Shown here in pieces: positions 6,145 through 7,407 of a stretch of DNA of 7,640 nt; the first letter of the stretch is position 1; each line of letters begins with the position of its first letter. The position numbers and the translations under genes are program-made. The stretch lies in the NCBI GenBank assembly GCA_964426185.1, contig CAYRPF010000040.1:1-7640 (forward strand). The letters run 5' to 3'. This stretch comes from an uncultured archaeon. GTDB taxonomy: Archaea; Asgardarchaeota; Lokiarchaeia; Sigyniarchaeales; Promethearchaeaceae. The notes below the pieces were generated by a model. It was not told the DNA's origin, searched no databases, and worked only from the letters and a program-made list of their open reading frames with translations.

Positions 6145-7407
6145 TTACGCTTTTTTTCGCTTTTTTTTAAGCACGCGGTCTTTCAAAGCAACTTCAGTTA
6201 AAATTTCTACAGCTTCATCAATATCTCGCTGAGTGTGTGTCGCCATTAAACTCGTGCGCAACATCGCCTTGGTGCTTGCGGGTGGAACCACTGGATTGGT
6301 ATAGACTCCAGCCTCAATCAAATCTTTATTAAATCTCATCGTTTTCATGGTATCACCGATTATGATGGGAACAACAGGCGTGGGTGTTTTTTGCGGGATA
6401 GTATGAAAACCTTTTTCTTCTACTGCCTTTCTGAATAATGCCGAATTAATTAGCACTTGTTTGCGTAAACCTTCTTCTCTTATGAATAAATCAATAGCTT
6501 TTGAAGCAGTAGCAGCAGAAGCAGGTGGAATAGAAGCACTATAGATTAATGCTCTAGCATGATTTCTAATATAATCAATTAAGTCGGACGCTCCTACTAC
6601 AAATCCTCCAATGCTGGCAAATGATTTCGAAAATGTTCCCACGACTAAATCCACTCGATCTATAAGTTTGAAATGCCCCAACGAGCCTTCTCCATGATCA
6701 CCTAAGTATCCCACCCCATGAGCATCGTCAATAATGACCCGTGCATCATATTGATCAGCCAACTCGATTATTCGGGGTATTTGAGCAAGATTACCTTCCA
6801 TAGAGAAAACACCATCAGAAATAATCCATCTATTTCCATCTTCTGGTAAACTTCTTAGCACTCGCTCTAAATCCTCCATATCATTATGCTGGAAAACCTT
6901 TGTATTGGCATAAGATAATCTACAACCATCAATGATGCTGGCATGATTTTTCTCATCTGAAACAACCCAGTCTCCTTTTCGAGTAATCCCGGAAATAGTC
7001 CCTAAATTAGCTTGCATTCCGGTACTATAGCAGAGTGCTTCATCCTTTCCCATAAAATCTGCTAATTTATTTTCCAATTCGAGATGTAAATCAAGTGTTC
7101 CATTTAAATAGCGAGATCCTGTGCAGCCAGTTCCATATTTTTCAATAGCGTCTTTAGCAGCTTGGATCATTTCAGGATGATCAGCCAATCCAAGATAATT
7201 ATTCGATCCCAGCATAATTGTCTCTTTTCCACGAAGATGAACCCTAGGACCAATTTTACCTGTATTTGGGATAAAATAAGGGTACAATCCCATTTCCTTA
7301 GTAAGATGAGACATTTTAACTCTGGGAGAAGCAGGAAATGTCTCGAATTTACCGATTCTCTTTTTAACGGTGGGTTTTTCCGAGATTTTTTGTTTAACTT
7401 CAGTCAA
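6145..7407 (-). CDS. spt: PLP-dependent alpha-oxoamine synthase (class II aminotransferase family), most like bacterial serine palmitoyltransferase
   Basis: Motifs [21 protein letters not shown], NHASI (H155), [8 protein letters not shown], DDAH (D227/H230), GTFSKS (PLP-Lys261), YSAS, NPVVPPA and LRTSLMATH (R384). TTG start with AAGTGAT SD at 7419-7413. Family assignment is secure. SPT over BioF/KBL is likely but not proven. Confidence 0.75.
   Translation of the reverse strand: [420 protein letters not shown]

Follow-up and report, generated by a model that had tools for sequence, protein, structure and literature searches.

An intact serine palmitoyltransferase-like gene in a Lokiarchaeial Asgard archaeon and its possible role in sphingoid base synthesis

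Sphingolipids are regarded as a trait of eukaryotes and bacteria, and archaeal membranes are considered to consist of isoprenoid ethers. Could an archaeon make sphingosine-like lipid bases as well? This question is raised by a stretch of 7,640 nucleotides, here called the window (NCBI GenBank assembly GCA_964426185.1, contig CAYRPF010000040.1, positions 1 to 7,640 of the forward strand), for which a preliminary description had proposed a gene encoding an enzyme similar to serine palmitoyltransferase (SPT). The contig has a length of 28 kb, the window being its first 7.6 kb, and belongs to a metagenome-assembled genome (MAG) of 3.26 Mb with a G+C content of 34% and a completeness of 92%. Here, we report that the gene is an intact archaeal SPT-like member of the alpha-oxoamine synthase (AOS) family and that its membership of this family is far beyond chance. 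A search of the literature library used here uncovered no paper that mentions both serine palmitoyltransferase and Asgard.

Family, active site and phylogenetic position of the enzyme

The gene is located on the minus strand (window 6145-7407) with a TTG start codon at 7407 and a TAA stop codon at 6145-6147. According to the list of open reading frames and their translations, it encodes an intact pyridoxal 5'-phosphate (PLP)-dependent AOS of 420 amino acids. All motifs of the catalytic set that had been quoted in the preliminary description were found in the translation, namely GLYPYF (residues 40-45), a further motif (residues 92-112), GTFSKS with the PLP lysine K261 (residues 257-262) and the C-terminal motif ending with LRTSLMATH (residues 367-391). 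A Pfam match to PF00155 (E 2e-55, residues 63-402) assigns the protein to the AOS family of PLP fold type I. The best solved relative is the S. multivorum SPT (3A2B, 8GUH; 365 bits, E 5e-108), and lower scores were obtained for the best KBL (267 bits), the cysteate acyltransferase (210 bits), the eukaryotic LCB2 chains (187-201 bits) and the CAI-1 synthase type (98 bits). Among the NCBIfam models, NF047600, which describes the Bacteroidota-type SPT, is the best match with 470.5 bits, a score below the curated equivalog cut-off of 640 bits; the next models are TIGR01825 for a BioF/Kbl subfamily (383.5 bits), BioF (375.7 bits) and KBL (372.5 bits). Three Bacteroidales controls exceed the NF047600 cut-off (B. 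finegoldii 700.5 bits, P. distasonis 683.8 bits and Prevotella 659.7 bits). Thus, the archaeal protein is SPT-like and stands outside the NF047600 equivalog. An AlphaFold model based on 17 sequences has a mean predicted local distance difference test (pLDDT) score of 90.3, with values below 50 only at residues 1-21 and a dip at the extreme C-terminus. The model superposes on 8GUH/3A2B with a template modelling (TM) score of 0.95 by target length. However, the fold supports an assignment at the family level only because KBL, BioF and ALAS superpose almost as well (TM scores of 0.89-0.94).

The residue roles described for the S. multivorum SPT (PMC10196870) were mapped onto the archaeal protein by a HMMER alignment to 8GUH. 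The PLP set is exactly conserved, His138, Asp210, His213, Thr241, Ser243 and Lys244 corresponding to H155, D227, H230, T258, S260 and K261, and Y54, S185 and A212 map to Y71, S202 and A229. Lys261, the PLP Schiff-base lysine, is encoded at 6625-6627 (minus strand), and this residue as well as H155, D227, H230 and the C-terminal R384 are invariant in our alignment A1. Of the residues forming the serine pocket (Asn52, Ala79, Gly80, Ser81, Asn117, Ser243, Ser273 and Ala274), seven out of eight are identical; besides the serine of the PLP set, Asn52, Gly80, Ser81, Asn117, Ser273 and Ala274 are retained as N69, G97, S98, N134, S290 and A291. The exception is Ala79, which is replaced by Thr96, and further changes are Phe114 to Met131 and Met271 to Ile288. 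The inter-subunit substrate loop C95-T96-G97-S98-R99-Y100-L101-N102, encoded at 7102-7125 (minus strand), aligns with C78-A79-G80-S81-R82-F83-L84-N85 of the S. multivorum enzyme. The Asgard and WOR-3 groups typically have threonine at the position of Thr96. The Asgard proteins and the Bacteroidales SPT have in common the loop C-T-G-S-R-x-L-N, which is also present in the WOR-3 group, as well as Glu204, Ala291 and F-S-K-S, and all these features are different in KBL and BioF. Moreover, Ala291 occupies the position of Lys280 in the cysteate fatty acyltransferase (CFAT) of C. ochracea. The pocket of cysteate acyltransferases differs notably by a lysine residue of the partner subunit, and the asparagine at the position of Asn134 is an SPT feature that is absent from the cysteate enzyme (PMC13692747). 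Both the alignment to 8GUH and the comparison of the groups thus bear out the SPT-like catalytic and substrate-loop residues that had been proposed for this protein. The argument from the lysine motif holds in part: members of the SPT-like group typically read S-K-S, but the motif by itself is not diagnostic because the KBL-type paralog of the same genome reads SLSKG.

Since plain identity hardly discriminates SPT from KBL, phylogenetic trees of prokaryotic sequences were built with FastTree (203 rows) and IQ-TREE (70 rows, LG+C20). The references were taken from annotated records and comprised three Bacteroidales SPT orthologues, of which two adjoin a gene of the diacylglycerol kinase family, the KBL enzymes of E. 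coli and Bacillus, whose genes lie beside tdh, and the BioF enzymes of E. coli and Alicyclobacillus, whose genes are part of bio operons. Both trees agree. In the IQ-TREE phylogeny, KBL and BioF are split with a support of 100/98 from an SPT-like superclade, which includes the Bacteroidota SPT, and the archaeal protein is found on the SPT-like side, as the preliminary description had expected. It belongs to an Asgard-dominated clade of 41 rows (support 96/91), whose labelled members are derived from four coded Asgard families and from Lokiarchaeum, Promethearchaeota, Kariarchaeaceae and Harpocratesius records. The superclade also includes a Priestia plasmid gene and WOR-3 proteins. IQ-TREE settles neither the backbone between the Asgard clade and the Bacteroidales SPT group nor the origin of the Asgard clade. 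A survey of 400 Asgard genomes gave SPT-like matches (scores above about 355 bits) for the family of the window (9/13), for the families f13, f15 and f18 and for a single genus of family f3, and the remaining families have only a KBL-type gene (about 265 bits). The gene is conserved across the Asgard families f1, f13, f15 and f18.

Nested in the Lokiarchaeial part of the clade (100/99) are eight sequences that are bacterial or carry a bacterial label (Syntrophaceae, Smithellaceae, 'Deltaproteobacteria' and two on contigs with bacterial genes). An approximately unbiased (AU) test, for which the bacterial group was defined after the tree had been seen, rejected a tree with the other 33 rows as a clade excluding this group (log-likelihood difference 138, p 3e-9). 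The simplest reading of the nesting is that the gene was exported from Lokiarchaeia to bacteria of shared sediments, which suggests an archaea-to-bacteria transfer of the SPT-like gene. No eukaryote-like SPT was found in a scan of viral contigs. P0246 and P0128, two long representatives that were tried as eukaryotic references, turned out to be prokaryotic SPT-like proteins.

Candidate reaction and competing explanations

By its sequence, the protein would be a functional homodimeric PLP-dependent AOS of an Asgard-specific clade in the SPT-like branch. By analogy to the S. multivorum SPT, PLP would be attached to Lys261, with His155 as its stacking partner and with bonds to Asp227 and His230. 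The external aldimine with L-serine would be formed in a pocket to which the partner subunit contributes the closing loop C95-N102, and a decarboxylative condensation with a long-chain acyl thioester would yield a 3-keto long-chain base resembling 3-ketosphinganine. The acyl group could be supplied as acyl-CoA by one of eight acyl-CoA-synthetase-type enzymes or by an acyl carrier. The genome indeed encodes eight AMP-binding enzymes of this type, and ketosynthase domains in an open frame of 2459 amino acids (C9:55662-59450; contig numbers prefixed with C are ours, the window being on C40) fit a type I fatty acid or polyketide megasynthase. Thus, the supply of the enzyme with acyl groups is plausible in this genome. 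In contrast, nothing in the analysis speaks for the isoprenoid acyl donor that had been considered earlier. Taken together, a condensation of serine with a long-chain acyl thioester would be the somewhat favoured activity of the enzyme, and the archaeon probably makes a sphingosine-like lipid base. The nature of the amino acid and of the acyl chain, as well as the product and what becomes of it, is inferred from the features described above. Sphingolipid synthesis in this archaeon is likewise inferred because the protein remained below the NF047600 cut-off and because neither a ceramide synthase, searched for with weak controls, nor a convincing 3-ketosphinganine reductase turned up in the 92% complete genome.

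Several observations weigh against the formation of a sphingosine-like base. The preliminary description had suggested examining the clustering with characterised SPTs, but the archaeal protein falls short of the equivalog score and its clade is separate from every characterised SPT, the Bacteroidales SPT forming a group of their own (98/93). Moreover, the identity of 46% to the Bacteroidales SPT (Parabacteroides, Bacteroides) barely exceeds the 44% found for the Bacillus KBL. The replacement of Ala79 by Thr96 affects a residue that touches the substrate side chain via a water molecule in the S. multivorum SPT (PMC10196870). As the specificity of SPT is largely water-mediated (PMC10196870), the sequence cannot settle that serine is the substrate. 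No neighbour of the gene is conserved across the Asgard loci when the loci of ten homologues and of nine Asgard genomes are compared. In the genome, no TLC-type ceramide synthase domain was found in a search whose control matched nowhere, and no PF13444 acyltransferase was found in a search in which the Caulobacter control failed to match. The best match to the short-chain dehydrogenases/reductases (SDRs) that are linked to SPT is an ordinary SDR with 30-32% identity (C26:28376-29215). A lipid kinase of the Bacteroides type, whose homologue is encoded on C5, was rejected as a partner, such kinases being common in Asgard families lacking the SPT-like gene. Furthermore, the SPT-like AOS of Nostoc yields no 3-ketosphinganine (PMC8895605). 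In addition, lipid analyses published for cultured Asgard archaea have, to our knowledge, reported isoprenoid ethers only, by methods that are blind to long-chain bases.

The same chemistry might therefore be performed with other substrates such as glycine, alanine, threonine or 2-aminobutyrate and a short, medium or unusual acyl thioester, giving a non-sphingoid aminoketone that could, for instance, act as a signal, belong to secondary metabolism or provide another type of amino-lipid head. We consider this alternative possible, if rather unlikely. It is in line with the position of the clade outside all characterised SPTs, with the threonine residue beside the substrate side chain and with the presence in the superclade of organisms that are not known for sphingolipids, as illustrated by the Priestia plasmid gene and WOR-3. 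Moreover, cysteate acyltransferases and the Nostoc enzyme demonstrate that SPT-like sequences may act on other substrates or form no 3-ketosphinganine, and the lack of a detectable downstream sphingolipid enzyme would agree with it, although the controls of the TLC and PF13444 searches were weak. However, the remaining residues of the serine pocket, including Asn134, are retained, alanine at position 291 takes the place of the lysine of the cysteate enzyme, and the CAI-1 synthase type is remote.

The SDR and acyl-activating genes adjacent to close homologues also fit the synthesis of long-chain bases. In a Syntrophaceae MAG, the end of an SDR gene (L011:5362-6222) coincides with the first base of the AOS gene. 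On Smithellaceae-type contigs, an AMP-binding enzyme of 608 amino acids is encoded near the AOS gene (L135:2111-3937 and L136:1943-3769), and a radical SAM gene and a gene for an unknown protein of 545-609 amino acids are also divergent to it. The SDR, the AMP-binding enzyme, the radical SAM protein and the 545-609-amino-acid protein are candidate partners of a long-chain-base pathway in these bacteria. An SDR of 336 amino acids (L051:6087-7097) is also encoded divergently beside the SPT-like gene of the f18 Asgard genome G091, whereas the other f18 locus that was examined (L050) lacks an SDR neighbour. At the locus of another bacterial homologue (P0007), a gene of the ERG2/sigma-1-receptor family (L015:10283-11044) is located two genes away from the SPT-like gene.

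A housekeeping role, either as a KBL in threonine and glycine metabolism or as a BioF in biotin synthesis, is far less probable for the protein than the activities discussed so far. Such a role might be assumed from the public annotation of homologues as BioF ('8-amino-7-oxononanoate synthase'), from the BioF and KBL models that still give 372-376 bits and from the fold, which, with TM scores of 0.91-0.95 by target length for all members, does not discriminate within the family. However, the split of 100/98 separates the archaeal protein from the KBL and BioF enzymes of E. coli, Bacillus and Alicyclobacillus, and its substrate loop is unlike both. Moreover, the genome has four members of the AOS family, which are encoded on C40, C7, C62 and C38. 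The member on C62 is of the KBL type (TIGR01825 485 bits, KBL 436 bits), and its gene adjoins a Tdh-like gene of the NAD-dependent epimerase type (943-3415 for the pair), which shares 49% identity with the neighbour of a KBL-like gene on a Halobellus limi plasmid record and which probably encodes a short-chain threonine dehydrogenase. BioB, BioD and BioW were not found by tblastn in the 92% complete genome. Thus, the separate KBL beside the Tdh-like gene and the tblastn result make both housekeeping roles unlikely for the gene in the window.

The second SPT-like paralog of the genome (C7:24373-25545, minus strand) is 49% identical to the protein of the window, reaches 470 bits with NF047600, retains the catalytic lysine and falls into the same Asgard clade next to the Harpocratesius record. 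Its neighbours, TrmO, a Dna2-like helicase and a topoisomerase, are uninformative. The fourth member (C38:25457-26530, minus strand) is very divergent, with 26% identity and the lysine motif GTMSKA, and had no NCBIfam family match at E 1e-95.

That the gene is present in no archaeon, the contig being chimeric or the bin contaminated with bacterial DNA, can be dismissed as extremely improbable. Homologues with 60-70% identity do sit on clearly bacterial contigs, but the contig of the window also bears genes for a DUF211 protein (Pfam 'uncharacterized ArCR' family), a P-type ATPase and a homologue of presenilin. The closest named homologue (68% identity) is from Candidatus Lokiarchaeum ossiferum, in whose closed genome the ESCRT-II and Vps4 genes are located a few kb away. 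In a closed genome of 4.36 Mb from the same genus, the gene is found with 86% identity and with the same flanking genes for a major facilitator superfamily (MFS) transporter and a membrane protein, and this gene order is also common to another relative. Moreover, the gene occurs in many Asgard genomes of four families, and its downstream junction is bridged by contigs of independent runs from hydrothermal vents and sediments. The host, which had looked archaeal from the outset, is a Lokiarchaeial Asgard archaeon, and contamination is excluded for practical purposes.

Flanking genes and expression signals

A gene for an EutA-like ASKHA ATPase of 508 amino acids (PF06277, 4e-123; window 4575-6101, minus strand) lies 43 bp downstream of the SPT-like gene. 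It was rejected as a partner, and it can be regarded as a chance insertion because the two remaining genomes of the genus have GrpB (G135) or an MmeI-type restriction enzyme (G136/P0003) at this position instead. The EutA-like genes of relatives are located far from the SPT-like genes in frames of about 700 amino acids, and a second copy in the genome, on C113, has a frame of 703 amino acids; EutB was not found in the genome. The genes for a multi-pass membrane protein of 266 amino acids (3709-4509, minus strand), which has no Pfam match, and for the MFS transporter (1939-3261, plus strand) keep their synteny with the SPT-like gene throughout the three genomes of the genus and not beyond. The gap separating the membrane-protein gene from the SPT-like gene varies within the genus. 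A 5S rRNA gene stands alone in the window (825-944, plus strand; RF00001, 58.4 bits), and no 16S rRNA gene was found in the MAG. A protein of 203 amino acids with a long Asp/Glu-rich stretch is encoded at 1129-1740 (minus strand) and has no Pfam or NCBIfam match.

On the minus strand, a Shine-Dalgarno-like AGTGA (7414-7418) precedes the TTG start codon of the SPT-like gene by 6 nucleotides, and a TATA-box-like TTTATAT (7481-7487), which was recognised by inspection only, is located about 75 nucleotides upstream of the start as a putative archaeal promoter. A run of seven T residues 10 nucleotides past the stop codon (6129-6135, minus strand) is a possible archaeal terminator, in which case the SPT-like gene would be monocistronic. 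The N-terminal extension ahead of GLYPYF is retained as protein in three relatives (R[VI]GKFExFP), two of which are from the same genus, and this conservation makes it likely that translation starts at or near the TTG codon and includes the long N-terminus. The polybasic C-terminal tail KKKRKKA (6148-6168, minus strand), for which a role in membrane docking had been considered, is confirmed and has counterparts in the closest orthologues from Lokiarchaeia: the alignment by group revealed basic tails also in the orthologues from G135, P0003, P0004 and L. ossiferum. Such tails are absent from the C7-type paralog, Kariarchaeaceae and the bacterial homologues. It is speculative that the lysine-rich disordered N-terminus and the polybasic tail could tether the soluble enzyme to the membrane.

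Implications and comparison with known systems

The existence of a conserved clade of intact SPT-like genes that includes the cultured L. ossiferum makes the proposed activity directly testable in cultured Asgard archaea. If long-chain bases are made, this would bear on the lipid divide and on the origin of eukaryotic sphingolipids; if not, the gene would be a warning against equating 'SPT-like' with 'sphingolipid producer' in metagenomes. Only tentatively can it be proposed that several Asgard families make sphingoid bases, and perhaps ceramide-like lipids, from serine and fatty acyl groups by means of an old Asgard-specific SPT clade, which syntrophic bacteria of the Deltaproteobacteria type would have acquired afterwards. 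Sphingoid lipids would then predate the eukaryotes in their closest archaeal lineage, and this group would have membranes of mixed chemistry.

The fold, the PLP chemistry and the length are common to the archaeal protein and to KBL and BioF, with which it shares 37-44% identity. However, KBL and BioF have an aspartate residue at the position of E204, threonine or asparagine at A291 and another substrate loop, and they belong to the clade beyond the 100/98 split. The archaeal enzyme also resembles the cysteate fatty acyltransferase (SulA/CFAT; 28EH, 7U7H), which is an SPT-related long-chain base synthase. The two differ, as reflected by the 210 bits, in having Ala291 in the archaeal protein and Lys280 in CFAT, and in the archaeal Asn134, which CFAT lacks.

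The eukaryotic SPT (LCB1/LCB2, SPTLC1/2) belongs to the same family and reaction type. In contrast to it, the archaeal enzyme lacks a membrane anchor as well as a catalytically dead partner, the lysine being retained by both SPT-like paralogs. Moreover, the LCB2 chains score lower (187-201 bits) than the bacterial KBL (267 bits). This result does not support a direct line to the eukaryotic SPT. A phylogenomic study from 2026 assigned an Asgard weight of 0.80 to eukaryotic sphingolipid metabolism as a pathway and did not name SPT (PMC12872458).

Closer similarity exists to the Spt-like proteins of Syntrophaceae, Smithellaceae and other MAGs of anaerobes, which are 60-70% identical, belong to the same clade and have the same signature residues, including Thr96. 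Unlike the archaeal gene, the Syntrophaceae and Smithellaceae copies have SDR or acyl-activating neighbours, and their products lack the polybasic tail. Bacteria with such proteins have been counted as potential sphingolipid producers, and the same survey of Black Sea metagenomes contained no archaeal MAG with an Spt-like protein (PMC11334938).

Among the characterised enzymes, the S. multivorum SPT and the Bacteroidales SPT (NF047600; B. thetaiotaomicron BT_0870 type) are soluble single-chain AOS enzymes of about 400 amino acids, like the archaeal protein, with which they share 43-46% identity. The archaeal protein differs from the Bacteroidota SPT by about 17 extra lysine-rich N-terminal residues, the polybasic C-terminal tail and the archaeal host, and its gene lacks the adjacent lipid kinase gene of Bacteroides. 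It has in common with the Bacteroidota SPT the catalytic set, the loop G-S-R-x-L-N, Asn134, FSKS, Ala291 and an N-terminal motif of the GLYPYF type.

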